Positions 9,465 to 55,158 of a stretch of 64,000 bases of DNA are shown here, piece after piece (position 1 is the first letter of the stretch; every line of letters starts with the position of its first letter). Under the pieces are notes generated by a model. The model searched no databases, was not told where the DNA came from, and saw only the letters and a list, made by a program, of their open reading frames with translations. Origin of the DNA: a virus (Duplodnaviria > Caudoviricetes); the IMG/VR virus record IMGVR_UViG_3300012979_000039, positions 9,055 to 73,054 of that record, one strand, 5' to 3'. Made by a program: the position numbers and the translations under genes.

Positions 9465-9761
9465 CTACTTATAAAGCTGCGAATAAAAAGATTTGAAAGC
9501 CTCGATGTCTTCCCTTTCGGTATATTGGAAGTACCTATTCATAAGAAACGCTTTAAGCGAAATAGGAACCGCATCATCTTTAGCAAAGTGAATCATTCCG
9601 TGTGCCATATAGTCGCTAAAAGCGTCTGAAAGCATTTCTTCGCTTGCGTGTACCCACAAAGCTTCAATTTTCCACGCTGTGAGTCGTGGGTCTCTTATAC
9701 TAAAAGGAGGTGTCTTCTCTCCTTTATAGAATCGACAGTAATCATTTTTTTTCATTATCAA
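9465..9761 (-). CDS. Hypothetical protein, candidate ART immunity partner
   Basis: 98 aa ORF overlapping the ARH stop by 4 nt, convergent with the MuF-ART gene. Confidence 0.6.
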   Translation of the reverse strand: MIMKKNDYCRFYKGEKTPPFSIRDPRLTAWKIEALWVHASEEMLSDAFSDYMAHGMIHFAKDDAVPISLKAFLMNRYFQYTEREDIEAFKSFYSQLYK

Positions 9762-10528
9762 TATATCTCGTTGTAAAATTTACCAATAATCTTTATCATT
9801 TCTATTGTCAGATAATCCGTTGCCCTTGTCTTTATTACGGGTGGAATGCCCCAGATTGCTTCTGCGATACTTCCAACGATTGCTGCGATTGTGTCGCTGT
9901 CGCCTCCGACTGCTACCGCCCACCTGATTGCTTCCTCGAAACTGTTTGCTTTGCGGAGTACCCCGAACACTACTGGCATAGTGCCTTGGCAGGTTTCGTC
10001 AAACTTATTGCATCCTACCTTTGGCTCTATCCAAGTGTGTGCGGGGTAGTAGTCGTTCATCTTGGTTAGCATAATCTCTTTGCCGTATCCCCTCGCATAA
10101 TAGATAGCTAACGCTGTTGCAACAGCTCCCTTTACTCCCTCTGGATGGTTGTGGGTAACCACCGCGCTTTTGGTAGCTTCGACAATTACTTGTTCCTCGG
10201 TATTAAAGAGCCACCCTACTGGCGAAACCCTCATAGCGGAGCCGTTACCAAAGGAATTGTACGGCTCTAAATCCTCGCCGTGAACCCACCTTGCAAAAGA
10301 GCCTCCGTAGCCGCCCATTGGCTCGGGGTATCTTCTGCACCATTCTTTGAGGTTATAGCCAAGATCCTCAAAATCCACTTTTTTCTGATACGCATCCGCT
10401 ATCGCAACAGTACATATTGTGTCGTCAGTAAAGTCACACTCGCCTGTGAATAGCTTGAAATTGAAATCTGTTGTGTTGTTGAACTCGAATCGTGATCCTA
10501 CGATGTCGCCGATGATTGCTCCTAACAT
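9758..10528 (-). CDS. ADP-ribosylglycohydrolase (DraG/ARH family)
   Basis: GAIIGDIVGS, FTDDT, GNGSAMRVSP, THNHPEG and GGDSDTIAAIVGSIAEA motifs. Confidence 0.93.
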   Translation of the reverse strand: MLGAIIGDIVGSRFEFNNTTDFNFKLFTGECDFTDDTICTVAIADAYQKKVDFEDLGYNLKEWCRRYPEPMGGYGGSFARWVHGEDLEPYNSFGNGSAMRVSPVGWLFNTEEQVIVEATKSAVVTHNHPEGVKGAVATALAIYYARGYGKEIMLTKMNDYYPAHTWIEPKVGCNKFDETCQGTMPVVFGVLRKANSFEEAIRWAVAVGGDSDTIAAIVGSIAEAIWGIPPVIKTRATDYLTIEMIKIIGKFYNEIY

Positions 10529-10635
10529 ATCCGTGTAGTATTTATGGTTTATTTCGTTTTTCTTTCTTATGTAATAGGTTTATACCTTTTTGTCTTTTGA
10601 ACCGTGCAAAGACGAGCAATACAGCTCTTGCAGGG

Positions 10636-11159: not shown

Positions 11160-11591
11160 TTAATCCGTTACTTCGTAGAAATACGACATTGCGTCCTCGT
11201 TGTCCTTGTTTGCTTCGCAGTAAGCATCGTGCGCTTCGTAAAACAAGCCTCTGTAAAGTTCCCGGAGTTCTTTGTTGCCATGTTCGTGATGCTCCCAGCA
11301 CTTGTGATTGAGGACAAGGACAAGTTCTGTTCCATAGACCGTATTCTTTATCCATTCCTTGACTGACCTGTCGAATGTCTTGCGTATTGCCCCATTGTCA
11401 TTCATGCGGCATTCGCAAAACTCCGCAATCGAGAAGTCTTGGAAGAATGTGGTCTGCGTTTGATAGCCTGAGAGTTTATTCATGACCCCATTGAACATTT
11501 CCTGTTCCATTGCGGCATACTCAACAACTGTCATTGGGTATGGAATGCGAAGCGGCATCGCCGCATACTTGATTTTTTCTGTTGTGCTCAT
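11160..11591 (-). CDS. Hypothetical protein
   Basis: 143 aa; TAATACTACACG motif upstream of ATG. Confidence 0.7.
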   Translation of the reverse strand: MSTTEKIKYAAMPLRIPYPMTVVEYAAMEQEMFNGVMNKLSGYQTQTTFFQDFSIAEFCECRMNDNGAIRKTFDRSVKEWIKNTVYGTELVLVLNHKCWEHHEHGNKELRELYRGLFYEAHDAYCEANKDNEDAMSYFYEVTD

Positions 11592-11613
11592 TATCGTGTA
11601 GTATTAGTTGTTG

Positions 11614-11844
11614 CTATGACCTGTAAAGCGAATAGAGCGTAGTTTTGTCAGTTTTGAAGTTGCTATGAACTGATACATTGTTCACTCCAATCTCCTTGAC
11701 AAGTTCCTCATAAGTCGGGTCGTAAATATTGAGGACAAACTCAATACCTTTAGGATGTGCGTTAAAAGCAAAATCGATGTCGTGCTTCATTAGCACTTTA
11801 GCAATTAGCAGGCAGTTGCCTGTAAGTCTGAAATACTGGTTCAT
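11614..11844 (-). CDS. Hypothetical protein
   Basis: Packed operon. Confidence 0.55.
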   Translation of the reverse strand: MNQYFRLTGNCLLIAKVLMKHDIDFAFNAHPKGIEFVLNIYDPTYEELVKEIGVNNVSVHSNFKTDKTTLYSLYRS

Positions 11845-12503: not shown

Positions 12504-12908
12504 TTAGTTAAAAATCCAATATCCATAGACACACCTTGTGCCTTTTCTGCTGCAATCGTAAGTGTCATTGATCACTCCGTCAATGACTGCGACCAAGTGA
12601 CCTGAGCAACTACATACGATTCTGCCTTTCGGCAATTCCTCTGCCCGGAGGTGGGTTTTGCAACCGCTTCCGATTGTCATACAAGGCACCCATTTTGCTC
12701 CGAGCTGTTCCATTACCTTGCGGATAGCCGTCTTGCTTACCCCGTCTCTTGGCGTTTTACCGCCTATCTTTTTATACAGGTTATATACCTCCTTGTAGTC
12801 CCTTTGACTTGCTATTGCGGTTGCTCTGGTAACGCAATCGCCAACCTTCTTTGCTGTGAAATAATTGCTACGACCTCCGTCGTTGTAGTTAAACCGTGTA
12901 GTGCTCAT
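12504..12908 (-). CDS. Phage protein with a putative papain-like Cys-His-Asp triad
   Basis: GDCVTRA ... SGHLVAVIDG..NDTYD pattern. Confidence 0.5.
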   Translation of the reverse strand: MSTTRFNYNDGGRSNYFTAKKVGDCVTRATAIASQRDYKEVYNLYKKIGGKTPRDGVSKTAIRKVMEQLGAKWVPCMTIGSGCKTHLRAEELPKGRIVCSCSGHLVAVIDGVINDTYDCSRKGTRCVYGYWIFN

Positions 12909-12920
12909 TTTGATATAGCA

Positions 12921-13301
12921 TTAAAAATTGAACTTGTAATCTATGTGTCTATAAACCCAGCCCTTTTCGGTGCGCTTAATAGCGAATGAGTAGCCCCAAT
13001 TTGGGCGGTAGCTCTCGCCCTTTCCTTCCTCTTTAAAGAACCTCTCCCAATAATTCGCCCTGAAGTTCGGGTCTTCGAGATTATTGCCCCAGTAACATCT
13101 GCTCTCCGAGGGAATGCAGAATATTGTTTCCCCAACCTTGAGTTCCCTGACGGCATCCATACACTCCATTAACGAGCGCATTCCAAACATTCCTACTGAG
13201 GTGTTCATCTGCTGGATAATGATGAATCCTCGCAGATTACTGAACTCATCTGCCTTGAATCTAAGGCTTCTCTTTGTGTCAAGTGTGAGTGTCGCTTCCA
13301 T
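12921..13301 (-). CDS. Hypothetical protein
   Basis: Start at ATG 13301 (MEATLT), preceded by ACTACACG; avoids overlap with 13312..13698. Confidence 0.6.
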   Translation of the reverse strand: MEATLTLDTKRSLRFKADEFSNLRGFIIIQQMNTSVGMFGMRSLMECMDAVRELKVGETIFCIPSESRCYWGNNLEDPNFRANYWERFFKEEGKGESYRPNWGYSFAIKRTEKGWVYRHIDYKFNF

Positions 13302-13311
13302 AGTCGTGTAG

Positions 13312-13698
13312 TTATTTGATGATTCTTTCCTCTCCTGATTCGTTGATGAAGTAACCCATAAGGTCGTGTCCATTATGACCTCCGTAATAGCCGTGCTGAT
13401 AAGACACTCCAATATTGAAGGCCACTCCCATTTCCTCGTCAGGGTCATTTGCCCAGACATCCATGCGGAGTTCCACCTTGGCGAAAAGTTGCTTTAAGAT
13501 TGCGTTGTTCCTCATCTTATTGTCAATATCATTCAGAGTGTCTATCGCTTGAATATAAATACCACCATTGTAGCGTTTTCCAAGCTCAAACTTGAGATTT
13601 ACCTTAACTCCGAGAGTTTCCTTGATAGCCTTTTCGACTTTTGCCTTGCACTGACTTTCGATGAAAGCGAGTACCTTTTCTGCGTGTTCCTGTGTCAT
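13312..13698 (-). CDS. Hypothetical protein, first gene after early promoter copy 1
   Basis: 128 aa; CTTAATACTACAC leader. Confidence 0.7.
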   Translation of the reverse strand: MTQEHAEKVLAFIESQCKAKVEKAIKETLGVKVNLKFELGKRYNGGIYIQAIDTLNDIDNKMRNNAILKQLFAKVELRMDVWANDPDEEMGVAFNIGVSYQHGYYGGHNGHDLMGYFINESGEERIIK

Positions 13699-13725
13699 TG
13701 TTGTGTAGTATTAAGAATGTTTATG

Positions 13726-15267: not shown

Positions 15268-15702
15268 TCAGAATAGGCTTGGCATTTCTTCCTCTTTCTT
15301 CAACGCTTCCTGACGCTTCTTCTCCACTCTCTCCTTTTCTTTCTTCTCCTTCTCCATGAGTTTGCGTAGTTCCTCTTTCTTGAATGCTTCAATTGCGTCA
15401 GCCTTTGCTTTTGCCTTGTCCTCCTCTGTCAGTTCGACCTTGTGGTTCACGACAACCGTGCCCTTAACCGCTTTGATTTCTCCGAGATCATCTTCCTCGT
15501 AGTAATGCACAGCCATTCCGAAAATCTCATCATCGGTAAAGCCGTTGCAGCCTGACTTTTGAACCGAGCTGAGGATATAGTTACAGCATTCCTCAATGCT
15601 CTTGCCCTCTTTGGCATACTTCTGTGCGAAGTTGTCGTCAAAGCCCGCAAGGTTATCCAAGTGGGCTTTGATTGTTCTTTGAAATTCCTGTGTAGTATTC
15701 AT
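15268..15702 (-). CDS. pcfK: PcfK-like / AcrIIA9-family anti-CRISPR candidate
   Basis: KSIEECCNYIL..V.KSGCNGFTDDEIFGMAVHYYEED and VVVNHKVELTEEDKAKA; paired with pcfJ. Confidence 0.8.
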   Translation of the reverse strand: MNTTQEFQRTIKAHLDNLAGFDDNFAQKYAKEGKSIEECCNYILSSVQKSGCNGFTDDEIFGMAVHYYEEDDLGEIKAVKGTVVVNHKVELTEEDKAKAKADAIEAFKKEELRKLMEKEKKEKERVEKKRQEALKKEEEMPSLF

Positions 15703-16383: not shown

Positions 16384-16629
16384 TTAATCCTGTTTTTGTG
16401 ATATCCTCGTGACCTCTTGCTTGATAATCCTGCATTTTGTCGTCACCTTTGCGTTAGTTTGAGTGATATGAGCAGCGTATAGGGCACCAAGTGATGTTCC
16501 TATATGCTCCTGTCCAAACTGGGCGAAGATCGCCCGTAAACTGCCGAAATAGTAATCGGTCTTACCTTCTACCGGTTCAAAGAAATGAACCTGAATAATC
16601 TGGCTTTTTGATGTCTTTTCTTTGCTCAT
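16384..16629 (-). CDS. Hypothetical protein
   Basis: 81 aa ORF in the operon. Confidence 0.6.
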   Translation of the reverse strand: MSKEKTSKSQIIQVHFFEPVEGKTDYYFGSLRAIFAQFGQEHIGTSLGALYAAHITQTNAKVTTKCRIIKQEVTRISQKQD

Positions 16630-16640
16630 GTTGTGTTGTG

Positions 16641-16793
16641 TTAATTGGTTAATTCTATCTTATACCATTCTACCTCCGGCTCGTCAAGCCCAAAAAACTG
16701 AATGATATAAGCCTCTGATTTGTCCCCTGTGAAATAAGTTGTTCGTGGTGTCGGTTTGCCTACCTCCTTGTAAGTGATTCTGTACTTTTTCAT
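16641..16793 (-). CDS. Small protein (50 aa, MKKYRITYKEVGK...) missed by the ORF track
   Basis: Open ATG..TAA frame read by hand; ACTTAATACTACAC leader. Confidence 0.65.
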   Translation of the reverse strand: MKKYRITYKEVGKPTPRTTYFTGDKSEAYIIQFFGLDEPEVEWYKIELTN

Positions 16794-16907
16794 ATTGTGT
16801 AGTATTAAGTGTGTCTCAAAAGAAAACCCGATAGTTTTGCCCAGATTGAGCGAAATGAAGAAGTTTACTAGTGTGCAAGATGAGAACCTATCGGGTTTAT
16901 ATATAAT

Positions 16908-17813
16908 CTATTCTTCCTTATTTCCGTCAAAGATGTAATCCACCGCTTTCTGCGCCTGTCCCGCGGCAATCACTATCATCTTCTTGTCATTCTTCAAGGC
17001 TTCGAGCCATCCCTGCAAGTATGCAACCGAGTTCTTGAATGCCTTTTCGCAGTCAATGCCCAAACGGTTAAGCGTCATTGCTGAGCCGATTTCTGCTACA
17101 AGCTCCTCCTTTGCGTAGGATACATCTCCGAAGGCGGCCACTCCGTCAATCTTGCGGTTGCACCTGGTGCCTATTCCCGTACTGTGAGTGAGTTCGTGAT
17201 AAAGTGTGGAATAGTATTCCTCGACAACCTCATACTGGGAAAGTTCAGGGACAACGACCTTGTCCTCTTTTGGCGAATAGTAGGCCCTGTCGCTGTGTTC
17301 AACTACGAGTGTCAGTCCGTCTTCCCTTTCAACATATTCTTTGGCGACCCTTTCCGCTTCCTCTATTGGATTATGGGTGTTGCCCGTCTCCCTCTCTATT
17401 TTGCTCTCAATACCCTCGATGTCGTCGATGTGGAAAACATTGTAGAATCGAAGAACCGGATAGCCGTAATTAGTTATAACGGTCTTGACCTTGCCCGTCT
17501 CTTCCCCCGTTTCTTCGTCAATCTCCTTAACTTTCTTCTGATTGATCACGGTATAGAATACTACCATCTTTGCTTTTGCCCCTTTCTTGACCTGACCTCC
17601 GAGAGCGGACGCCTGCTTGTATGTGAGGTATTCGCCCGGCTTTCCGAGCAGCATCTGATTCAGGAGAGAATAAGGTCTGCGGGAGACATAACTGATTGCT
17701 TCTTCCGAGCCTCCGCACCAAGGCTTCTGCCAAGGAATGATGCCCTTCTCCATTTCTGCGATGATGTGTTCAGTAACGATGTCGTAAACATCTACTTTGT
17801 TCTTCTGTGCCAT
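16908..17813 (-). CDS. ardC: ArdC-family anti-restriction ssDNA-binding protein (zincin-like domain)
   Basis: YDIVTEHII..MEKGIIPWQKPW, HELTHSTG and EELVAEIGS motifs. Confidence 0.9.
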   Translation of the reverse strand: MAQKNKVDVYDIVTEHIIAEMEKGIIPWQKPWCGGSEEAISYVSRRPYSLLNQMLLGKPGEYLTYKQASALGGQVKKGAKAKMVVFYTVINQKKVKEIDEETGEETGKVKTVITNYGYPVLRFYNVFHIDDIEGIESKIERETGNTHNPIEEAERVAKEYVEREDGLTLVVEHSDRAYYSPKEDKVVVPELSQYEVVEEYYSTLYHELTHSTGIGTRCNRKIDGVAAFGDVSYAKEELVAEIGSAMTLNRLGIDCEKAFKNSVAYLQGWLEALKNDKKMIVIAAGQAQKAVDYIFDGNKEE

Positions 17814-17835
17814 ATCCGTGTAGTAGTTAAATGAT

Positions 17836-18024
17836 TTATATTTCTTCTTCCAATTCTTCCTTAGTCATATAATTCTTGACGAGGATTCTTCCGCTTAGAT
17901 AGCAAATGCCAAGCATCGAAAACGACCAAATCAATTGTAATATTGCTGTTTCTGCTTCCGCACATGCAAGGAATAAACTCATAAGGCATACAATGCCAAG
18001 AACGGTTTTCATAATCTCTTTCAT
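17836..18024 (-). CDS. Small membrane protein
   Basis: Two hydrophobic stretches. Confidence 0.5.
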   Translation of the reverse strand: MKEIMKTVLGIVCLMSLFLACAEAETAILQLIWSFSMLGICYLSGRILVKNYMTKEELEEEI

Positions 18025-18374
18025 TGTTCATCCTCCTCATCATTAGTTGTTTCACATTCCTGTAATCTGTCAAGCTCCACTGCGTCCATTGACCAGTATC
18101 GCTTTGCTCTGCGGAGGCACCCTCTCCAGAAAGAAAGCCAATCTTTTGCGTCGTCCTCGTCAAGCATCGTTTCTTGGTTGAGTTCTTCATCCTCTGTCCA
18201 AGTGAGAATACCTTTTTCTGTCATGTTGAAATGCCTTACGTTCCTTGTAGTAAAAGCGTCTTCATAAAGAGCGATCTCACCTGCTTCGTTTACGTCAGAT
18301 TCTTTTGCAAAAGCTTCGAGGTCGTCATTGAACCTTTCCCAAGCCTTGATGTGTCTGTTGCTAATCTTTGTCAT
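18021..18374 (-). CDS. Hypothetical protein, first gene after early promoter copy 2
   Basis: Start at ATG 18374 (MTKISN), preceded by ACTACACGG. Confidence 0.65.
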   Translation of the reverse strand: MTKISNRHIKAWERFNDDLEAFAKESDVNEAGEIALYEDAFTTRNVRHFNMTEKGILTWTEDEELNQETMLDEDDAKDWLSFWRGCLRRAKRYWSMDAVELDRLQECETTNDEEDEQ

Positions 18375-18402
18375 TTCCGTGTAGTGTTTAGAAGTGTTTG
18401 TA

Positions 18403-43673: not shown

Positions 43674-44195
43674 ATGTTCAGTGGACTGAGGGAGAATGCT
43701 CCCATTTTCATACTCACGAAAGGAGAAAGGCCTGTCTTGCAGGTCGGAACGGTAGTCAGTGTCAGCAATCCGAATCTCGGATTCGGTTCACAGATGCCGA
43801 TGTTGAACCCAGGTGCTATCATGGAGGTTACGGTCAAGGTGGGCGACAATACCTTTGACCTCAAGAATCTGCCGTGCAATCAGACCTCTTATGTATATAC
43901 TAAGGAGAATGCCTTTGTTACAGACAACTGGCAGGAGATGCTCAAGGAGGTGGACAACCTTGAACGTGCGAGTCAGGCTGTCGTGGACAGCGCTCCGCTT
44001 CATGCCGACCTTGTGAAATCATACAAGGGAATGAAGGAGGTGCTTGACCCGCAGATCGCCAAGGAGAGGGCTAATCAGGAACAGATAGACGACCTCAAAA
44101 GCCGTATGGGCGGCATAGAAGACACTCTCGGTCAGATGATGGGGCTTCTTCAGTCCCTGAACAATAGCGGAGGTAGCAAAAAAGTAAAGGAGTAA
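43674..44195 (+). CDS. Hypothetical protein with C-terminal coiled coil
   Basis: Operon. Confidence 0.7.
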   Translation: MFSGLRENAPIFILTKGERPVLQVGTVVSVSNPNLGFGSQMPMLNPGAIMEVTVKVGDNTFDLKNLPCNQTSYVYTKENAFVTDNWQEMLKEVDNLERASQAVVDSAPLHADLVKSYKGMKEVLDPQIAKERANQEQIDDLKSRMGGIEDTLGQMMGLLQSLNNSGGSKKVKE

Positions 44196-44199
44196 AGTT

Positions 44200-44499
44200 A
44201 TGGGCTGGAAAATGATTCAGATTCCGAGCGAGAAGGTCTATTCTCTCAGCGAGCATATCGAGAAGGCTCTCCGTCACGCGGGAAAGGCCATGCAGTGTCT
44301 TGAAGACATGACGCCTGAACATGAGATGGGTGAGCGTTACATGGGTGAACGCTACATGGGCGAAAGAGGCAATTACGGACAAGGCGGTTCGTCATACGGC
44401 AGCCGTTCATACGGAAGTTACGGAAACCGTGACGACGAGTGGAATGAGCGTGAGATGGACGAAAGACGCAGACGTGACTCTCGCGGAAGGTACATGTAA
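44200..44499 (+). CDS. Low-complexity protein with MGER repeats
   Basis: EMGERYMGERYMGER..YGQGGSSYGSRSYG..RRRRDSRGRYM. Confidence 0.7.
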   Translation: MGWKMIQIPSEKVYSLSEHIEKALRHAGKAMQCLEDMTPEHEMGERYMGERYMGERGNYGQGGSSYGSRSYGSYGNRDDEWNEREMDERRRRDSRGRYM

Positions 44500-44541
44500 A
44501 ATCAGGGGGCTTGAACTGCCCCCTTTATGACTTGAAAGACT

Positions 44542-44973
44542 ATGAACAGAAGAACACCCCTTGACATCTATGAAGTGGAGATGATGCCTGCCGACATGAA
44601 GGCTTATCTCCGCAATCACGGCTTTTCGTTTTCCAAGAAGGCTTGTGACTTTGCGGTGTCGCTTATGGAAAGAAGAAACAAGGCGACTGACAAGGCGGAG
44701 AAGATAGAGCCTTACACCAAGGAAAAGACTGAGGAACTTATGACCAAGTACGGAGTGACCTTGAAGAACAACATAGGCTACAACTTCGTATATGTCATGA
44801 ATATGACATTTGCTGACTGTTGGAAAGAGTCAATCGAAGACGAACACCATCTTGTCAAGCATGTAAAGTGTATAATCGATGACATTGACGACAACCCGGA
44901 AAACGTTTTTCGTCTTTGGATAGCCAAGATGGACGGTAACGGTATTCCTATTCCTTGGGAAGAAATAATGTAG
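44542..44973 (+). CDS. Hypothetical protein
   Basis: YLRNHGFSFSKKAC; operon. Confidence 0.7.
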   Translation: MNRRTPLDIYEVEMMPADMKAYLRNHGFSFSKKACDFAVSLMERRNKATDKAEKIEPYTKEKTEELMTKYGVTLKNNIGYNFVYVMNMTFADCWKESIEDEHHLVKHVKCIIDDIDDNPENVFRLWIAKMDGNGIPIPWEEIM

Positions 44974-44982
44974 TATTAAGCC

Positions 44983-45417
44983 ATGATAGTACAGGATATA
45001 TATTTGCCGGAATATGATTGGCATTGCCGTGTATTTTATGCAGTTACCTGCTATTGGGCAGATGACATCCTGTATGAACTTCGCAGGACCGGTTGCAACG
45101 GCAAGGAATATCATACGGCACAGAACAATCTGTATGATAGTAAGTTAGATACTGGATTGACGTACTCCAACAGAGAGAGCCGTGAGAGCATAATGGTCAT
45201 TGCCAAGACCAGTTGCCCAGAGGAGTTTGCCCACTCGTTTGACCACGAGAAGGGGCATCTTGCAAAGCATATTGCACTTGCATACGACCTTGACCCCTTT
45301 GGAGAGGAGGTTCAATATCTCAGCGGTGACATAGCGAAGGAGATGTTTCCGATAGCGAAGCGTTTTTTTTGTGAATGCTGCAGAAGAAAACTATATACGA
45401 GGCGTAGTGAGCAGTAG
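44983..45417 (+). CDS. Hypothetical protein with an HExxH-like motif
   Basis: SFDHEKGHL..HI. Confidence 0.65.
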   Translation: MIVQDIYLPEYDWHCRVFYAVTCYWADDILYELRRTGCNGKEYHTAQNNLYDSKLDTGLTYSNRESRESIMVIAKTSCPEEFAHSFDHEKGHLAKHIALAYDLDPFGEEVQYLSGDIAKEMFPIAKRFFCECCRRKLYTRRSEQ

Positions 45418-45448
45418 AATACTCACACGCGAGAGAAGTGCATTTCAT

Positions 45449-45490
45449 TACGGGTGACAGAGAGTGGCTAACTCTGTTGCCCGTTGTTGA
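45449..45490 (+). terminator. Hairpin closing the 6-gene block
   Basis: CGGGTGACAGAG / CTCTGTTGCCCG stem. Confidence 0.6.
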
Positions 45491-45650
45491 TTTATGTGCT
45501 ATATTTGCAGCATATCGCTCTCGGAACGATTGACTGGCTATCCGCTTGCCGTTAAAGCGGACAAAGAAAAACTAATACAAATAAAGACTACCAATCAATT
45601 ATGCATTAGTTCTATGGGGAAGGGTTCAGGCCTTTCCCTTTCTTTTTCCT

Positions 45651-45714
45651 AAAAAGGGTAGCCCTCTGCGGCTCACAGAAAGCACGGCAAAGGGCTACTT
45701 AATACTACACGGTT
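45651..45714 (-). ncRNA. Predicted ~64-nt sRNA antisense to the shared early-gene leader motif
   Basis: Own promoter (TTTG-N19-TACCTTTG); 5' AACCGUGUAGUAUUAA unpaired; 12-bp stem GUAGCCCUUUGC/GCAGAGGGCUAC followed by CCUUUUU. Confidence 0.75.
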
Positions 45715-45717
45715 CGG

Positions 45718-45748
45718 CAAAGGTAAACTTTTTAGTTTACAAGTCAAA
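45718..45748 (-). promoter_or_regulatory. Consensus Bacteroidetes promoter driving the sRNA
   Basis: -33 TTTG at 45748..45745, 19-nt spacer, -7 TACCTTTG at 45725..45718. Confidence 0.8.
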
Positions 45749-45751
45749 GAT

Positions 45752-46987
45752 TTACTTGCTTTTTCGGTAATCCTTGCCGTAAAATATATAGTCTATTATC
45801 TTTCTGTTTGCGTCATCTACAAGGTCGTTGTCGTAATCTATATATATATCAGTTACTTTCAATCCGAAACTGTGCCCCATGCCTCTGCTTATCACCTCTT
45901 TGGATATGCCTATCTTCATTGCTACGGTAGCCCAAGTGTGGCGTGCCCAGTTTGAACTCAAGTCCGGGAAGATGCCTTTCCCAAGAATCTTGCCGCGTTT
46001 GCCGAGCGGTCTGCCGATAGCCTTGAGCCCGTCATTGAAATGATGTAGATAGTCCTTATAGTCGTCATACGAGTCCATAGGGTTGAGCAAGGTACCTCTG
46101 CCTTTGTACTTTTCAATGATCGCGATTGCCTCTGGCTCCAGTTTGACAGACAGAGGTGTTCCCGTCTTGTTTCTTCGGTAATCTAACCTGCCGTTGGACA
46201 CCTGCTGTGCAGTAGCAAGGAAAAGGTCTCCGGCATTGATTCCGCGAAGAAGGAACATGAGGATAAACATATCGCGATACTGCTCTTGATAAGGCTCGCA
46301 CTTGGCATTTAAGAGGCTTTTGAGTTGTTCCGGCATAAGTGCCTTCTTCCGCGTATTCTCTTGTCTTAACGGGTACTTTCTGAAAGGATACAAGGTTGTT
46401 ATGCCCGCGTTGATTGCATCGTTGAATACGGCTCTTATGTTTCTCAGGTGGATATTCCTGCTGTTCTTCTTCTCTGTCTTGGAACAAAAGGACTCGAACT
46501 CCCGAAGATAGTCGTTGGTTATATCCTCAAACGAGCGGGTTGCAAGATTAGAGTCATATGCTTCTAACTTTCGGAGAGTATAGGCATACAGCCCTCTTGT
46601 CCCGTCATTGCCCTTCAGTTCCATGAAGCGAACAAAACGGAATCGGAACATATGGCTTTCCTCTATTTTCCGCTTCTTGTCAGGGTCTATGATGTCAATT
46701 ATCTTGTCACGAAGTTGATATGCAGTTAATCCTCCGCTTTCCCCGTTTTCCACCAGCCGCAGGATAGCGGAATCTATCTCCAATCTCTTCTTGTTAAGGA
46801 TAAGATTGATTCTTTTGGCATTCGGATGATTTACCACCTCCTTTCTTGTCGTACTCCACTGTTGCACTGTTACCTTGATACCTGTATTGATATAAGCCGC
46901 CTTGCCGTTCTTCCGTATAGCAAATTTCAGAGGAACCGGTTGATTTTCCTGAACCGCTCTGGCGTCGAAGTAGATTGTTATTGTCAT
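45752..46987 (-). CDS. int: Tyrosine integrase (Bacteroidetes type: arm-binding, SAM-like and catalytic domains)
   Basis: LLRGINAGDL, RNKTG, ARHTWAT, MGH and IYI catalytic motifs; start at ATG 46987 (MTITIY). Confidence 0.93.
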   Translation of the reverse strand: MTITIYFDARAVQENQPVPLKFAIRKNGKAAYINTGIKVTVQQWSTTRKEVVNHPNAKRINLILNKKRLEIDSAILRLVENGESGGLTAYQLRDKIIDIIDPDKKRKIEESHMFRFRFVRFMELKGNDGTRGLYAYTLRKLEAYDSNLATRSFEDITNDYLREFESFCSKTEKKNSRNIHLRNIRAVFNDAINAGITTLYPFRKYPLRQENTRKKALMPEQLKSLLNAKCEPYQEQYRDMFILMFLLRGINAGDLFLATAQQVSNGRLDYRRNKTGTPLSVKLEPEAIAIIEKYKGRGTLLNPMDSYDDYKDYLHHFNDGLKAIGRPLGKRGKILGKGIFPDLSSNWARHTWATVAMKIGISKEVISRGMGHSFGLKVTDIYIDYDNDLVDDANRKIIDYIFYGKDYRKSK

Positions 46988-47137
46988 ATCCCGCACTGAT
47001 TTTGCACTTTCTTCTCCCTTAAAATGGAAAAAAATGGAAAGAAATGCTCTTTTTTTTGACCGGGATAGTCTTGAAATGAGGGGAAAAATAAAGCGATTGA
47101 CCGTTATAACTAACTGATAATCAATCGCTTTATAGGT

Positions 47138-47181
47138 GTGATTCGGTTGGGATTCGAACCCAAGACCCACAGCTTAGAAGG
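47138..47181 (-). other. att core: 3' half of tRNA-Arg(UCU)
   Basis: Minus strand CCTTCTAAGCTGTGGGTCTTGGGTTCGAATCCCAACCGAATCAC contains the anticodon loop, T-arm and acceptor strand; no D-arm or 5' half. Confidence 0.85.
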
Positions 47182-47269
47182 TAAAGTACTGCTGAATCTT
47201 ATAGCCTTGTAACTTCCTCAATATCAATACTATCCTTGTTCGTGTGATAACTACGGTTTTATGCTTGCA

Positions 47270-47551
47270 CTAATTTTGCACTTTTTGATGTTCCACGCGT
47301 CTTGCATAGAACTCTCCCTCGCCGGTAAGAAGCCACCTCGCACTAACATTATAATCCCTGACGAGGTATGTCAGCCATGCAGTTTGAAAGATATCCCTTC
47401 CCGGCTCTTTTTCAAGGGTGTTAAAGTTCCATCGGTTGATTCCATACTTCTCGGTAAAAGTTTTCTTTCCCCTTATTGCCTTGTCTGATTTCAGGCGGTA
47501 TATAGCATCAAAGAACCGAATGACCACTTTTTGACTATCGTTGTTTTGCAT
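47270..47551 (-). CDS. XRE-like HTH regulator
   Basis: FTEKYGINRWNF..VSARWLLTGEG. Confidence 0.7.
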   Translation of the reverse strand: MQNNDSQKVVIRFFDAIYRLKSDKAIRGKKTFTEKYGINRWNFNTLEKEPGRDIFQTAWLTYLVRDYNVSARWLLTGEGEFYARRVEHQKVQN

Positions 47552-47747
47552 AGGCTTTCTGTATTCTGTTAATCATGTCATTTCTTCTGCATACCCATTC
47601 GTTGAGCAATTTCTGCCAATGGGCGAGAGTGCCTGGGGTGAGCCGCAGAAGCCCGTTGGCGACCATCGCAAGTTCTAGACTTGTCATCACCGGTATGAAC
47701 TCCTGTACTTCTTCTAGAAGTTGAATGCTGTGCAGTTCTTTTCCCAT
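47535..47747 (-). CDS. Hypothetical protein
   Basis: In the cI operon. Confidence 0.5.
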   Translation of the reverse strand: MGKELHSIQLLEEVQEFIPVMTSLELAMVANGLLRLTPGTLAHWQKLLNEWVCRRNDMINRIQKAYAKQR

Positions 47748-47765
47748 ATATATAATAGGTATATA

Positions 47766-48161
47766 TTACTTTGACATAGCCTGTTTCAAGAGTTCGATGA
47801 AAGCGTCATGTTGCTCTTGGAACTTGGCACACATTTTCTGCTCTTCCGCGAGTGCGTCCAGGGCCTTGTTCAATGCTTCATTTGACGGTCCGTGAATGTC
47901 GCCATTGGCTGTGGTGTTGTTGTCGCCAATGACATTCTGATTGTTGTCTTTTCTGAGCATGCTTCCTTTTTCCCCGTTGCTGAGCAGCCACTCTGGGTCA
48001 ATTTCCGGACACTTTTCATATACGAGTTCTAGATCCAAGTATCCACGCTTGACCCACGAGTAAGCGTTCTGCTCGGACAAATCAAATTTCTGAGCAAAAT
48101 CTATATTTCTATGGAGTTTATAATAATCTCGTATCTCTTTGAGCATCAATTCTTTAGCCAT
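47766..48161 (-). CDS. CI-like repressor
   Basis: HTH (NIDFAQKFDLSEQNAYSW), DPEWLLSNGEKGSM; divergent from a cro-like gene. Confidence 0.8.
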   Translation of the reverse strand: MAKELMLKEIRDYYKLHRNIDFAQKFDLSEQNAYSWVKRGYLDLELVYEKCPEIDPEWLLSNGEKGSMLRKDNNQNVIGDNNTTANGDIHGPSNEALNKALDALAEEQKMCAKFQEQHDAFIELLKQAMSK

Positions 48162-48223
48162 ATCTCAATAAAAATTTTATTAAAAATAATTAAAATAAAT
48201 TTTTATAAATTAGAAATAATTAT

Positions 48224-48254
48224 TATTTTTGCCTCGTTAATTTCAACAAAGATA
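48224..48254. promoter_or_regulatory. Face-to-face lytic/lysogenic promoters
   Basis: Rightward TATTTTTG at 48224..48231; leftward TATCTTTG at 48254..48247. Confidence 0.55.
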
Positions 48255-48304
48255 GAAAAACTTTTGTAAAAATTATTAAAAATATTGTTTAAAATTTTTA
48301 GAGT

Positions 48305-48496
48305 ATGCCAGAATTAAAGACAGAAATCGAAAAGCGCAGGGACGAGAGAAACAGAAGTATCTGCTCTGAGTTTAAGAAGCTTAAGGAGAAAGACACGTCA
48401 CTATCTACTCACCGCATTGCATCGCATTTAGCAGAGAAGTATAACCTTACTACCCAGGCGATAACCCTTATCGTCAAGGCGGCTAATCTCTGCTGA
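48305..48496 (+). CDS. Cro-like HTH protein
   Basis: Small HTH divergent from cI. Confidence 0.65.
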   Translation: MPELKTEIEKRRDERNRSICSEFKKLKEKDTSLSTHRIASHLAEKYNLTTQAITLIVKAANLC

Positions 48497-48498
48497 TT

Positions 48499-48699
48499 AT
48501 GATTACCGGAATCAAGCCAAACGTGAACAAGGAGCGCAGGTATTCAGTGCCTGAGACCTATACACTTCTTGGCATCAATCGCAAGACACTGATGAAGTAC
48601 ACGGAGCGGCAGCAGATTATCCCAATCGTACACTCGGCTAATAACCGCCTATACTACACGGGAGAAGAAATACTCCGCTTCTGGAACGCAGTTTCATAA
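48499..48699 (+). CDS. Excisionase-like (MerR-type HTH) protein
   Basis: RYSVPETYTLLGINRKTLMKY..YYTGEEILRFW. Confidence 0.75.
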   Translation: MITGIKPNVNKERRYSVPETYTLLGINRKTLMKYTERQQIIPIVHSANNRLYYTGEEILRFWNAVS

Positions 48700-48723
48700 C
48701 ATTAACATTTTAATACTACACAA

Positions 48724-49584
48724 ATGGAAACATTACAAGTGACTCAGATTCAGAGAGCAGAAACACTTGAAGCTCTCAATCGTTCTGAAATCGACATCCA
48801 GATTTCAACAGCAAAGAAGTTCCCTCGTTCAGTGGAACAGTCAACCAAGAGGATAATGGCACTTGCCACTATTGATGAAGAAACCGCACAAGAGTGCTTT
48901 TACTCCCTCCGCAGGGGCAAAGGCGAAAGTGCATCAGCAGTAGAAGGACCGAGCGTAAGACTTGCGGAGATCGTCGCAGCATCTTGGGGCAATCTCAGAG
49001 TTCAGTCGCAGGTTGTGAGCAATGACGGCAAGTTCATCACAGCAAGGGGTATATGTCACGACCTCGAAACTAACACCGCAGTATCTTGTGAAGTGCAGAG
49101 AAGAATCACTGACAAGTACGGCAAGACATTCAGCGAAGATATGCAGGTCGTTACCGGCAACGCGGCTGGCGCAATCGCCTTTAGAAATGCCGTATTCAAG
49201 GTAGTGCCAAAGGCAGTGATAAACAATACCGTCAAGGCAATCAAACAGGTGGCAATCGGTCAAGCAAACAATCTTGAGGAACGCAAGAGCAATATGCTCA
49301 AGTTCTTTGCTTCTATCGGCGTGACAAGGGAAATGGTGCTGTCGTACCTTGAGGTCGAGGCAACCGAGCAGATAGATATGGAAATGGTAATGGAAATGGT
49401 TGGTCTTGTCAACGCAATCAAGGAAGGCACGACCACAAAGGAGGAAGCCCTTATCAATCCATACAACGAGAAGATGCGCAGCAAGACCGCTACAAAAGCA
49501 GCAACAGCAACACAGAGCAAGGTCGCAGCAGCATTGCAGAAGCAGGGCGAGGGAATGTTTGAAGATGATCTTCCAAACGCATAG
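48724..49584 (+). CDS. Putative single-strand annealing/recombination protein
   Basis: EIDIQISTAKKFPRS and GPSVRLAEI; adjacent to the YqaJ gene. Confidence 0.6.
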   Translation: METLQVTQIQRAETLEALNRSEIDIQISTAKKFPRSVEQSTKRIMALATIDEETAQECFYSLRRGKGESASAVEGPSVRLAEIVAASWGNLRVQSQVVSNDGKFITARGICHDLETNTAVSCEVQRRITDKYGKTFSEDMQVVTGNAAGAIAFRNAVFKVVPKAVINNTVKAIKQVAIGQANNLEERKSNMLKFFASIGVTREMVLSYLEVEATEQIDMEMVMEMVGLVNAIKEGTTTKEEALINPYNEKMRSKTATKAATATQSKVAAALQKQGEGMFEDDLPNA

Positions 49585-49611
49585 AGGGCAGCTACTTAAT
49601 ACTACACGCAA

Positions 49612-50580
49612 ATGGCTAATTTCACAATCAGAGCCAATAATCACAAAGAGTGGTTGGAGGCAAGGAAAGGAGGTATCGGTGCATCAGAGATAGGCACCAT
49701 CCTCGGTGTCAATCCATACGACACTCCTTATCAGTTGTGGCTCCGCAAGACAGGCAGAGTACAGGAAGTAGAGAGCGAGAACTTCCTAATGAAAGCGGGA
49801 CACTATCTTGAAGATGCAATCTCAAAGTTCTGTGCCGATGAAACCGGCATCGAGATCATCAAGCGTTCCGCAGAGGAGTTCGTCGTAGTCAATCAAGATA
49901 AGCAGTTCCTCCGTGTTAGTCCCGACCGATATGCTTGGCTGCCTAATGCGAAGCACACACAAGATAACAAGGTTGTCGTTGAATGCAAGTCAACACAGAA
50001 GCAGATATTCGATGATGATATTCCTCTCACTTGGTTCACGCAGGTGATATATCAACTTGGCGTGTGCGAAATGAATCAGGCATATCTTGCTTGGCTGACA
50101 CAAGGCAGGGACTTCGGATATAAGCATATCGTTTTTGACAAGGACTTCTACAATGATGTAATCGTTGCGGAAATCGAAAAGTTCTGGGTTGATAACATCC
50201 TCGGAGACCAGGAGCCTGCTCTTTTGAACATCGAAGATGTGAAGAGAAAGTATCCGATTCACAATGTCGGAAAGTCAGTCGAAGCGACAGATGAACTCCT
50301 TGACAGGTATCACACTCTTGTCGATGTGAATGCAAAGATAAAGGAACTTTCGGCTATCAAAACAGAGGCCGAGAATGCCCTCAAATTTGCCCTTCAAGAC
50401 GCGGAAAGTCTAATTATACCAGCGACAAACGAAATGCCGTTCAAGACCCTTGCTACTTGGAAAGCAGCCAAGGAATCAAGCAAGTTCGACGAGAAGGCAT
50501 TTGCAGCGGAGAATCCAGAACTGTATTCAAGATATATGGTCACTACTCCGGGCAGTCGCAGATTCATGCTTAAACAGTAA
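49612..50580 (+). CDS. YqaJ-like viral recombinase/exonuclease
   Basis: EWLEARKGGIGASE, SPDR, ECKST and QVIYQLGV motifs. Confidence 0.9.
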   Translation: MANFTIRANNHKEWLEARKGGIGASEIGTILGVNPYDTPYQLWLRKTGRVQEVESENFLMKAGHYLEDAISKFCADETGIEIIKRSAEEFVVVNQDKQFLRVSPDRYAWLPNAKHTQDNKVVVECKSTQKQIFDDDIPLTWFTQVIYQLGVCEMNQAYLAWLTQGRDFGYKHIVFDKDFYNDVIVAEIEKFWVDNILGDQEPALLNIEDVKRKYPIHNVGKSVEATDELLDRYHTLVDVNAKIKELSAIKTEAENALKFALQDAESLIIPATNEMPFKTLATWKAAKESSKFDEKAFAAENPELYSRYMVTTPGSRRFMLKQ

Positions 50581-51305: not shown

Positions 51306-52457
51306 ATGGTTATCACAAGAAGAATTGAAGTCTTTATCTGCGAGGATGATAAAGACCTCCGTAAGTCGTATTACGAAAAACTCTACGACAACAGTAAGGC
51401 GGCAGTCGCTACCGCTAATATGGCTATCTCGCATTTGTATATGCTTGACAATACAACCCCTTATCTCTCGGAAGAAGATAGAGAGAAGATAGTCTATCTC
51501 GGAGCAAAGGGAAGTGCTGCAACAAGAAACAATGCACCCTATGTCAAGGCTTCCGAGATGTTCAAAGGAAAGGCGGATATGGGTATGCTTTCCTGCGTAT
51601 GTCAGGAAGTACGAAAGGTCTATCAGGACGACCGAAAGAAAGGAATGTGGAATAGGTCACTCCGTTCATATAAGGCGAATATGCCAATGCCGTTTAAGGC
51701 GGAAAGATTCTGTGATCTTCGCATTTCCGAATATCACGATAAGGAAGATACTGTCCGCAAAGGGTGCCTCTTCACTCTTATGGGTATCCCTTTCCAATGT
51801 AGATTCGGCAGGGATAGGAGTAACAACAGAGTGATTGTGGAAAGAGTCATAGAGGGAGATTACAAGATGTGTACATCTTCCATTCAGATTGATGGGAAGA
51901 AGATATATCTGCTTTTGCGTGTCGATATTCCTGTTCAGGAACATAAACTGACAGAGGGTAAACAGATATTCGCCTTCCTTGGAGTAATGAATCCTATTGT
52001 ATGCACTACGGATATAAATTATAATCTCTGTGGCGAGAGCAAGACCAAGAGTGTTGTTTGGGAGATAGGAACAAAGGAAGAGTTCAACTATCGCAGAAGG
52101 CAGATTCAGGAAGCGGTTTGGAGATGTCAGAAGCAGAACAAATATAGCACGGGAGGTAAGGGCAGAAAGAGGAAGTGTCAGGCAATAGAACGATACCACG
52201 AAAAGGAAATGAACTATGTAGACACGAAACTCCATACTTATTCCCGTGAACTGGTGGATTTAGCCATCAAGCACAAGTGTAGTGAGATAGTTCTCATGTC
52301 GCAGAAGAAGAGGGAAGAGAAAGCCAAGAAGGACAACGCAGTTGAAGAGAAGAACAATCATGAAGAGTTCGTCCTTCGCAACTGGTCTTACTATGGCTTG
52401 AAGGAGAAGATTTCCTACAAGTGTAAGATGGCCGGGATTAAGTTGATAGAAGAATAA
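51306..52457 (+). CDS. cas12f: Nuclease-dead Cas12f/TnpB-like RNA-guided DNA-binding protein
   Basis: RuvC-I FAFLGVMNP (D replaced by F), bridge helix ..YVDTKLHTYSRELV, RuvC-II IVLMSQ (E replaced by M), LRNWSYYGLKEKISYKCKMAGI; ends before the Zn finger/RuvC-III; adjacent CRISPR array. Confidence 0.85.
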   Translation: MVITRRIEVFICEDDKDLRKSYYEKLYDNSKAAVATANMAISHLYMLDNTTPYLSEEDREKIVYLGAKGSAATRNNAPYVKASEMFKGKADMGMLSCVCQEVRKVYQDDRKKGMWNRSLRSYKANMPMPFKAERFCDLRISEYHDKEDTVRKGCLFTLMGIPFQCRFGRDRSNNRVIVERVIEGDYKMCTSSIQIDGKKIYLLLRVDIPVQEHKLTEGKQIFAFLGVMNPIVCTTDINYNLCGESKTKSVVWEIGTKEEFNYRRRQIQEAVWRCQKQNKYSTGGKGRKRKCQAIERYHEKEMNYVDTKLHTYSRELVDLAIKHKCSEIVLMSQKKREEKAKKDNAVEEKNNHEEFVLRNWSYYGLKEKISYKCKMAGIKLIEE

Positions 52458-52466
52458 AGACAATAT

Positions 52467-52555
52467 ATCGGGGTGGTTGCACACCCTTAACGGGAGGATT
52501 TCTCACTCCTGAAATACCTTTACGAAAGTGGTTTGTAGGTAGTTATGTCGGATAG
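52467..52555 (+). ncRNA. tracrRNA-like scaffold copy B / array leader
   Basis: GGGTG-GTTGCA-CACCC hairpin with loop complementary to the repeat end TGCAAC; ATACCTT complementary to repeat AAGGTAT. Confidence 0.7.
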
Positions 52556-52747
52556 GTTGTAAATACCTATAAAACTTAAGGTATATGCAACTCCTCTGTG
52601 TTTATGGAAAATTCAATCTGTTGTAAATACCTATAAAAACTCAAGGTATATGCAACATCGGAGAAAACTTGCCCTCATAAAGACGGTTGTAAACACCTAT
52701 AAAATTCAAGGTATATGCAACAACAGCCACAAACTACAATATGCAAC
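52556..52747 (+). CRISPR. CRISPR mini-array: 3 full repeats, 2 full spacers and a degenerate end
   Basis: Repeat GTTGTAAATACCTATAAAACTTAAGGTATATGCAAC at 52556..52591, 52620..52656 (37 nt) and 52686..52721; spacers of 28 and 29 nt; remnant ATATGCAAC at 52739..52747. Confidence 0.92.
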
Positions 52748-54905: not shown

Positions 54906-54993
54906 CATTTTTATAAGAAAAATTTTTATTATTTTAAAATATTTTATAATTTTGCCCGGTGATTATAATACAAACACTCTAAACTACACGAAA
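54906..54993 (+). promoter_or_regulatory. Repeated early promoter/operator module, copy 3 (inverted, diverged)
   Basis: Closely matches the reverse complement of 18375..18465; TAATTTTG at 54947..54954; TATTTTAAAATA palindrome. Confidence 0.8.
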
Positions 54994-55158
54994 ATGGAAA
55001 CAATCACTACACGGTATCTCGTACAGCTTAACGGCAAGGGAATCAAGATGGGTAAAAAGAAATTTTACTCAGAAGAAGAACAAGACGCTTTTGAAAAGCA
55101 GATGGAATCGAAGTTCGCTCGCAATGAAATGGACTTGGTTGTTGTAATGTTCCGCTAG
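54994..55158 (+). CDS. Small protein (METITTRY...)
   Basis: ATG after promoter copy 3, with an ACTACACG leader. Confidence 0.65.
   Translation: METITTRYLVQLNGKGIKMGKKKFYSEEEQDAFEKQMESKFARNEMDLVVVMFR

Follow-up and report, generated by a model that had tools for sequence, protein, structure and literature searches.

T4 RegA is a single phage factor that sits on the initiation regions of many early mRNAs and thereby stops their translation, and lambda OOP and P22 sar and sas are small phage antisense RNAs that tune lysis–lysogeny or exclusion genes. The nearest published idea to the locus studied here is c4 of phages P1 and P7 (immI; the CI RNA of P4 is related), and two likenesses stand out: c4 is a phage trans-acting antisense RNA directed at ribosome-loading sequences of the phage's own lytic-side mRNA, and its short pairing sequences set immunity specificity and differ between heteroimmune relatives (PMC12197685). 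On the host side, the small RNAs (sRNAs) GibS and FopS of Bacteroides thetaiotaomicron share with our locus the host clade, a sigma-ABfr promoter, a 5′ single-stranded seed, and a Rho-independent terminator hairpin, and they repress, as we propose for the present unit, by pairing at the start regions of several mRNAs (PMC7366714, PMC11697453). A copy of FopS has been noted in a Bacteroides phage (PMC11697453), and a 2025 review of phage sRNAs includes no example from Bacteroidota and no sRNA that governs a tagged multi-gene regulon (PMC12197685). Searching the literature by topic and by motif sequence, we found no description of a unit such as the one reported below.

The DNA analyzed here (the window) is a 64-kb stretch, bases 9055–73054 of a 73,054-nt IMG/VR virus record that is rated complete; its source is a temperate gut phage of Bacteroidales. 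The gene map of the window is lambda-like:

about 18.4 to 9.5 kb, minus strand: leftward early and accessory module
18.6–45.4 kb, plus strand: long structural and lysis block
45616–45650, plus strand: intrinsic terminator of the convergent late/structural operon (terminator scan)
45752–46987, minus strand: tyrosine integrase (int), 411 aa from the ATG at 46987, with PF17293, PF13102, and PF00589 on homologues; directly upstream of the candidate sRNA, on the same strand
45754–45752, minus strand: integrase stop codon TAA
47139–47182, minus strand: tRNA 3′-end fragment (T-arm and acceptor end), upstream of int
between the tRNA 3′ fragment and the rightward early operon: repressor-side ORFs
from 48.3 kb, running on into the first 9 kb of the record (L002): rightward early operon

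The tRNA 3′ fragment at 47139–47182 is likely the attP core. Copies of its 44 nt, 90–98% identical, are present in three faecal phage contigs and in Bacteroides phage BF1-TP2, none of which has anything else in common with this stretch. In an integrated relative (L110), host genes abut the 5′ side of int. Since the tRNA fragment and this host junction both lie on the int 5′ side, the sRNA locus is not an att site; a role as attP arm or core was ruled out, the unit lying on the int 3′ side, inside the prophage. In two other relatives (L109 and L111), the interval from the sRNA terminator to the last late gene is shorter by about 165–200 nt when compared with window positions 45440–45640. The missing stretch includes the plus-strand terminator and a 52-aa ORF (45494–45652), which is therefore unlikely to be a gene.

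A trans-acting sRNA gene would be expected to have a promoter of its own, a terminator and a stable fold that leaves the seed free, complementarity to target start regions beyond chance, and a seed that changes together with its targets in relatives. The candidate unit consists of the following elements:

45745–45748, minus strand: −33 box TTTG, beginning 3 nt past the integrase stop; invariant in all five related sequences
45718–45725, minus strand: −7 box TACCTTTG, fitting the Bacteroidota sigma-ABfr consensus TAnnTTTG; invariant in the same five
45699–45714, minus strand (read 45714–45699): unpaired 5′ seed AACCGUGUAGUAUUAA (DNA AACCGTGTAGTATTAA), antisense of the leader tag described below
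45658–45698, minus strand: hairpin of 17 pairs (fold and terminator scan)
45698–45687 and 45669–45658, minus strand: arms GTAGCCCTTTGC and GCAGAGGGCTAC of the outer 12-bp stem
45651–45657, minus strand: terminator tail CCUUUUU (CCTTTTT)

TTTG and TACCTTTG are separated by a 19-nt spacer, the predicted transcript start lies about 5 nt past the −7 box, and CCGUGUAGUAUUAA is invariant among relatives. The −7 motif TAnnTTTG is the sigma-ABfr consensus quoted for Bacteroidota (PMC7366714). When both strands were scanned, this was the sole match to the strict pattern TTTG-N18-21-TAnnTTTG in 64 kb. About one such match per window is expected from shuffled sequences, so the promoter match alone proves little and counts only together with its position and conservation; the requirement for an own promoter is thus met as a prediction only. 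The requirement for a terminator and a stable fold with a free seed is also met: the predicted fold (−28.4 kcal/mol, z = −4.6) leaves the 5′ 18 nt free ahead of the 17-pair hairpin. These results uphold the initial annotation, made from the letters alone, which had placed a Bacteroidetes-consensus promoter just past the integrase stop on the minus strand (the offset is 3 nt), followed by a free 5′ end of about 16 nt and a 12-bp stem running into CCUUUUU.

The same hairpin also has what is expected of an intrinsic terminator for the integrase gene, being GC-rich, with a U run behind it, and lying 45 nt past the int stop. It therefore doubles as the int terminator, with the plus-strand terminator at 45616–45650 ending the late operon. 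The terminator role and the sRNA role of the hairpin are compatible, and the terminator role fails to explain the conserved boxes and seed. An Rfam 15 scan of window positions 44000–49000, with E values up to 1, returned no FopS, GibS, C4, or other family. Membership in C4 was rejected on this absence of a match together with the unit's own promoter and its location between int and the late operon.

The tag that recurs at the starts of early genes, (TT)AATACTACAC(G/A)(G/A), is the reverse complement of the sRNA's free 5′ end. The sites in the window are as follows:

48711–48726, plus strand: tag TAATACTACAC, AA, and ATG of a 286-aa protein (phrog_3657; gene 48724–49584)
49592–49614, plus strand: tag (18 nt complementary to the sRNA) and ATG of YqaJ exonuclease (gene 49612–50580)
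54983–54996, plus strand: core ACTACAC, GAAA, and ATG of a 54-aa ORF (54994–55158), behind a repeated promoter-leader cassette
18372–18389, minus strand: tag and ATG of a 117-aa ORF (18021–18374), the first gene of the leftward early module
17811–17828, minus strand: tag and ATG of an ArdC-like anti-restriction/metallopeptidase protein (16908–17813)
16791–16807, minus strand: tag and ATG of a 50-aa ORF (16641–16793)
16627–16643, minus strand: degenerate tag ACAACAC and ATG of an 81-aa ORF (16384–16629, phrog_10608)
15690–15702, minus strand: tag over the start codon, ATGAATACTACAC, of a PcfK-like protein (15268–15702)
13696–13713, minus strand: tag and ATG of a 128-aa ORF (13312–13698)
13299–13312, minus strand: tag core and ATG of a 126-aa ORF (12921–13301)
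12896–12908, minus strand: tag over the start codon, ATGAGCACTACACGG, of a 134-aa ORF (12504–12908, phrog_3754)
11589–11606, minus strand: tag and ATG of a 143-aa ORF (11160–11591)
10526–10543, minus strand: tag and ATG of an ADP-ribosylglycohydrolase (9758–10528)

To quantify this recurrence, we compared match counts with chance expectation. Within the 64-kb window, the 16-mer with at most 3 mismatches gave 9 matches (0.42 expected), and TAATACTACAC with at most 1 mismatch likewise gave 9 (0.57 expected). Across the full 73-kb record there are 23 copies of the core ACTACAC, compared to 9.5 expected. Twelve of the 23 end 2–6 nt (usually 4) before the ATG of an early gene, always in the gene sense, where an ATG was counted when it opened an ORF of at least 40 aa; two more overlap start codons (those of PcfK and the phrog_3754 protein), and one is the antisense copy inside the candidate RNA. 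In a pairing test with 200 shuffled seeds and a simple gene call, 10 start regions paired with the true 16-nt seed at −13 kcal/mol or below, while shuffled seeds reached a mean of 0.33 (maximum 5), so that complementarity to target start regions goes beyond chance. Most predicted duplexes are only 10–14 bp, AU-rich, and between −12 and −19 kcal/mol. We also ran an unbiased screen of every TAnnTTTG box, scoring each by the number of start regions that contain the complement of the next 22 nt; the window unit came out top, with 10 complementary start regions vs. 5 for the runner-up.

The tagged set includes a DnaD/O-like initiator, a DnaC-like loader, the phrog_3657 protein, YqaJ, ArdC, PcfK, ADP-ribosylglycohydrolase, and several small unknowns. 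No tag is found at int, at the repressor-side genes, or at any structural gene. The initial annotation had counted the free 5′ end as pairing with 14 sites at 13 gene starts; the present count is 12 sites before an ATG and two overlapping ones. It had also described 18 contiguous complementary nt at yqaJ, and these are indeed present at 49592–49609 (GCTACTTAATACTACACG; five of them pair with the sRNA stem base). Its further AGGG pairing past a bulge at yqaJ did not hold up: the related contig L112 does not keep it, and we therefore treat it as chance.

Some tagged genes lie behind repeated promoter-leader cassettes, found at 48191–48233 and 54914–54956 and also on the minus strand before 18374 and 13698. 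Each cassette comprises an AT-rich promoter ending in TA..TTTGCC, a conserved 5′UTR start (C)CTGTGATTATAA(T/C)A(C/T)AAACA, the tag, and the ATG; since cassettes repeat before them, at least three or four tagged genes own a copy of one promoter cassette. Three further copies of ACTACACGG lie off start codons, at 48653–48659 and 55006–55012 of the window and at 3252–3262 (minus strand) of L002. They fall, in this order, in the 3′ part of an HTH_17 (excisionase-like) gene, four codons into the 54-aa ORF, and behind a GTGATTATA leader without a following ORF. In the late mRNA (44964–44982, plus strand), before the ATG at 44983 of the last late gene, AATGTAGTATTAAGCC has the same sense as the seed and matches it at 12/12 nt (TGTAGTATTAAG). 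This copy is not kept in L112 (…TGTAGTCGTATAAG…) and may be a decayed duplicate or chance.

We then compared the unit with its relatives. Single-query integrase and YqaJ searches of IMG/VR and GTDB gave no close relatives, exact seed/stem and loop patterns had no matches among viral contigs and genome contigs, and the pattern of tag plus ATG gave only single matches in unrelated viral contigs, evidently by chance. Integrase homologues led to four contigs, at 85, 84, 79, and 77% identity; L110 is an integrated prophage, and L112 also carries early genes. Aligning the five sequences shows almost no change in the −33/−7 boxes, CCGTGTAGTATTAA, the stem, or the loop; variation is found in the spacer of the promoter, in the 5 nt that separate box from seed, at third-codon positions of int, and in the downstream DNA, with its 165–200-nt indels. 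Among L109–L111, the 60-nt RNA shows 0–6 differences, while int differs by 24–28% overall and by about 50% at third positions. This comparison relies on L109–L111, the value for the window and L112 integrases coming from an ungapped alignment and being probably inflated. One stem pair changes from C-G to U-A in L109 and L111, a compensatory change, and 100% of cells are paired in the five sequences; by itself, a single compensatory pair from five sequences is weak evidence. L112 keeps the tag at yqaJ, at the preceding gene, and at two more genes. Two phages with integrases of at most 66% identity (L113 and L115) are other phages, without the window's element. Since the seed never varies within the window's own lineage, evidence for co-variation rests on comparison between lineages.

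Such a comparison was possible with units of a second kind (type 2) in other Bacteroidales phages, in which the tag is (A/C)TCCACAACAAC and the antisense seed GTTGTTGTGGA(T/G). Contig L116 has the tag AATCCAC(A/G)ACAAC upstream of a minimum of four early start codons, at a distance of 1–7 nt; the genes are a 64-aa ORF and those for YqaJ, a helicase, and a DNA methylase. In the region from int to the end of the late operon, the same contig has TACCTTTG followed by CA and CCGTTGTTGTGGATT, an exact antisense of the tag, and then two hairpins, the first short and the second a terminator; L114 is arranged likewise. With a YqaJ protein alignment as the query, we recovered 80 IMG/VR loci, many of them tagged at start regions. 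In whole records, each genome has a single antisense copy that is not at a start codon, and this copy lies close to the int end. A 10-mer screen on 20-kb loci misses type 2 because proviruses have int at one end and the early genes at the other. Carriers of the unit are L116, L114, G001, G002, G005, G006, G008, G009, G010, G011, and three bacterial metagenome-assembled genome (MAG) contigs, and GTDB places type-2 units in Duncaniella and Bacteroides MAGs.

Type-2 early genes carry ..CCACAACAAC 0–9 nt before the ATG, and the 37 exact copies of CCACAACAAC in eight records divide into 25 at start regions, 8 sRNA copies, and 4 elsewhere. The type-2 seed always stands 4 nt past the −7 box, ahead of two hairpins that differ in sequence among phages: the stems include GCAC/GUGC, GCGC/GCGC, GCCC/GGGC, and UUGCGUA/UACGCAA, and the terminator stems differ as well. 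Across records, the TAnnTTTG-box screen put the unit at the top in G000, G001, G002, G005, and G008, and level with another box at the top in G011. The type-2 unit faces the opposite way to the window's with respect to int, but its relation to promoter and terminator is unchanged, so what is conserved is the order promoter, seed, hairpin, and terminator, not the relation to int.

Within type 2, seed and tag differ together. Seeds ending in GGAU go with tags AATCCAC (G001, G002, G005, and L116), seeds ending in GGAG with tags (A/G)CTCCAC (G006, G008, and G011), and seeds ending in GGUA (G009 and G010), with less clean pairing, with (A/T)ACCAC. In a matrix of exact 12-mer matches, T1, T2a, and T2b each match only their own tags (a diagonal pattern), while T2c does so weakly. 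The dinucleotide before CCAC is AT at 19/19 start regions in T2a genomes; in T2b genomes, it is AT at 2/11 and CT at 9/11 (Fisher, 4e-6, not corrected for shared ancestry). Related genomes are non-independent samples for such co-variation, and the expectation that seed and targets change together in relatives is met without ancestry correction. In GC-richer genomes, the energy of the G/U-rich type-2 seed does not beat that of shuffles. It had been proposed beforehand that seed-motif covariation be looked for in relatives, and that relatives keeping the leader motif without any complementary RNA would refute the idea. The comparison supports it on the one count, seed and hairpin being kept in four relatives and other lineages matching their own tags; on the other, the opposite of the refuting case was found, L112 retaining both the tag and the RNA unit.

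Six type-2 units were folded:

L240, 2652–2748, minus strand
L234, 1010–1106, minus strand
L237, 1562–1658, minus strand
L245, 14295–14391, plus strand
L246, 1372–1468, minus strand
L249, 1282–1378, minus strand

Type-2 hairpins were compared from single folds, RNAalifold on a promoter-inclusive MAFFT alignment being uninformative. In these folds, a tag-like downstream strand (UCCAC, UCCGC, CUUCAU, or CUCCA), which varies with the seed subtype, is paired with the 3′ half of the seed (GUGGA.), so that only GUUGUU(G), a 6–7-nt toehold, stays free. It is possible that this predicted self-pairing serves as a built-in toehold or as self-masking. A scan of six type-2 loci against Rfam 15 gave anti-hemB as the sole match, at E = 0.75, which we take as chance. 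The candidate in G015 proved a false positive, arising from self-overlapping ATGs on the opposite strand, and GTDB matches in Verrucomicrobia and Comamonas contigs lacked the architecture and were set aside as chance. In L113, a prophage whose integrase is 66% identical and which carries a reverse transcriptase and a Sequestin/Acb2-like gene, TACCTTTG is followed by CATTATCAAAACCCAAC and a hairpin GGGGTAAGAG…CTTACCCC near int (about 11700–11760, minus strand). This may be a third seed type.

Several other readings of the unit have to be weighed. That the locus is an integrase terminator and nothing more, with the promoter match and reverse tag being coincidence or the remnant of a lost gene's leader, would suit an ordinary hairpin and U run 45 nt past the int stop and the one strict promoter match per window expected by chance. 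We nevertheless regard it as very improbable: a 14-nt exact copy of the tag is not chance when only 0.4–0.6 looser matches are expected in 64 kb, boxes and seed stay invariant in relatives while spacer and flanks change, no start codon follows the reverse copy on the plus strand, and the arrangement recurs with another seed in other lineages. The tag could instead be a DNA operator for a phage DNA-binding protein, the copy at the −7 box being one more, inverted operator. If one protein read every site, the copies within a genome would likewise be expected to change in concert, and the copy at the −7 box overlaps the promoter start region, a frequent location for operators. However, double-stranded sites need neither a fixed strand nor a fixed distance to the ATG, and all start-region copies are gene-sense and 0–9 nt from the ATG, many of them in intra-operon gaps of 12–30 nt. 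The tags are also asymmetric and single, which is atypical of operators, and in both lineages, whichever way the unit faces int, the one reverse copy per genome always heads a promoter-hairpin-terminator unit. These points leave an operator quite unlikely.

Still harder to credit than any of these is a promoter or start element for a phage polymerase or sigma factor, with the reverse copy driving antisense transcription over int. The tag does faintly recall T7-type promoters (TAATAC...), and many copies head genes, some after intergenic gaps. Yet no phage RNA polymerase gene was found among the proteins scanned, the tag ends 0–6 nt from the ATG inside tight operons, and three tagged genes already have TAnnTTTG promoter cassettes about 25 nt upstream; moreover, the type-2 reverse copy points away from int, so there is no common antisense target. 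A different question is whether the RNA, while pairing with the tags, activates or stabilizes its targets, acts as a decoy for a host sRNA or nuclease, or works mainly on host mRNAs. The sign of regulation is not fixed by the data, the internally paired 3′ half of the type-2 seed (UCCAC and variants) points to a controlled, toehold-type interaction, and phage sRNAs acting on host targets are known (PMC12197685). We consider these variants unlikely all the same, given that pairing covers −5 to −16, the ribosome-loading zone, and that the known Bacteroides sRNAs of the same build repress (PMC7366714, PMC11697453); nor is there an inhibitory fold to open, because the tags are G-free and predicted to be unstructured. 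A guide RNA for the neighboring 383-aa ORF (51306–52457) was also entertained and dropped as not required, since L112 keeps sRNA and tags without that gene. A Pfam scan of this ORF gave no match; it is followed by three direct repeats of 37 nt with 65-nt spacing (52555–52721).

We therefore return to the reading in which the unit encodes a trans-acting sRNA whose pairing with the tags prevents translation initiation across the early regulon. We hold this to be probable, with the reservation that both the transcription of the RNA and the repression by it are inferred, there being no transcript or other expression data. The initial annotation had likewise inferred a trans-acting master riboregulator, a reading that gains support from the conservation in four relatives and from independent lineages with seeds antisense to their own tags. 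As proposed, a gene for an sRNA of about 64 nt would combine a host-type sigma-ABfr promoter, the single-stranded 5′ seed CCGUGUAGUAUUAA, and one long hairpin with a U tail; the seed would begin at, or within a few nt of, the transcript 5′ end, and the integrase mRNA would share the terminator. The predicted partner of the seed is the CA-rich tag (UU)AAUACUACAC, which lacks G and spans roughly −5 to −16 in some 14 early mRNAs. The Bacteroidota ribosome, which does without a Shine-Dalgarno site, needs that leader zone single-stranded and A-rich (PMC7366714). By covering it, the duplex would turn off translation of the whole set at once. Since GibS and FopS share this build and repress translation, repression is the most economical reading.

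When the RNA would act is much less certain. The prophage-end position, similar to that of a moron, the consensus promoter, and the restriction of targets to early lytic genes suggest expression in the lysogen, from a constitutive-looking promoter and as a layer beside a CI-type repressor; we put this setting forward only tentatively, doubting it somewhat more than we believe it. RNA made in the lysogen would silence leaky or incoming early mRNAs bearing the same tag, thus forming a threshold and an immunity layer, and on induction the many tag copies would titrate it out. A late shut-off role, as for T4 RegA, is not excluded. The strict 4-nt spacing between tag and ATG exceeds what an sRNA site needs, which suggests that the tag has a second job, e.g., as a translation enhancer. 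More speculative still, and in our judgment rather doubtful, is an RNA "address code," in which the CA-rich start-codon tag would be both an enhancer in the absence of a Shine-Dalgarno site and the docking site of a master sRNA, with lineage-specific pairs providing RNA-based immunity specificity. Each lineage would then have its own seed/tag pair (at least GUGUAGUAUUA, GUUGUUGUGGAU, GUUGUUGUGGAG, and GUUGUUGUGGUA), which would silence leaky prophage mRNAs as well as early mRNAs from any superinfecting phage that bears the same tag, and would diversify as heteroimmunity groups do.

If this is true, one 64-nt RNA governs translation of a whole early set (replication, recombination, and anti-defense) through a dedicated tag, a regulon design undescribed for phages and found in a host phylum whose post-transcriptional control and phage biology are poorly known. 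The lineage-specific seed/tag pairs would offer a testable model of how an RNA can set immunity specificity and, for controlling translation in Bacteroides, a natural orthogonal toolkit. The tags, being conserved, G-free, and at a fixed distance from the ATG, make it testable what replaces the Shine-Dalgarno site in Bacteroidota. We rate the unit, in the absence of expression data, as a base-pairing sRNA or phage immunity RNA of unusual, regulon-wide, and lineage-coded design.

Set beside the systems described at the outset, this design has several distinguishing traits. RegA is a protein that acts at loosely similar AU-rich sites in a lytic phage, whereas the unit would act as RNA in temperate phages, through exact complementarity that is specific to each lineage. 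OOP, sar, and sas are cis-antisense RNAs opposite a single target; the unit, in contrast, is unlinked to its targets, which are many. With 3′UTR sRNAs of the DapZ/MicL class, it shares an internal promoter, an sRNA gene placed right after a coding gene, a shared terminator, and a parent mRNA whose 3′UTR also carries the seed. Unlike that class, the type-2 unit follows the late operon's own terminator, and linkage to int is therefore not essential. GibS and FopS have chromosomal targets (metabolic and SusC-like genes) and a seed of unrelated sequence, whereas the targets of the unit are the element's own genes, which bear a dedicated tag. Finally, c4 lies next to icd/ant and is processed from the operon that it controls, has two target sites in one leader, and carries its pairing bases in loops, while the unit described here has its own promoter at the far (int) end of the genome, a 5′-terminal seed, and about 14 dispersed targets with one tag, in a host clade without Shine-Dalgarno sites.
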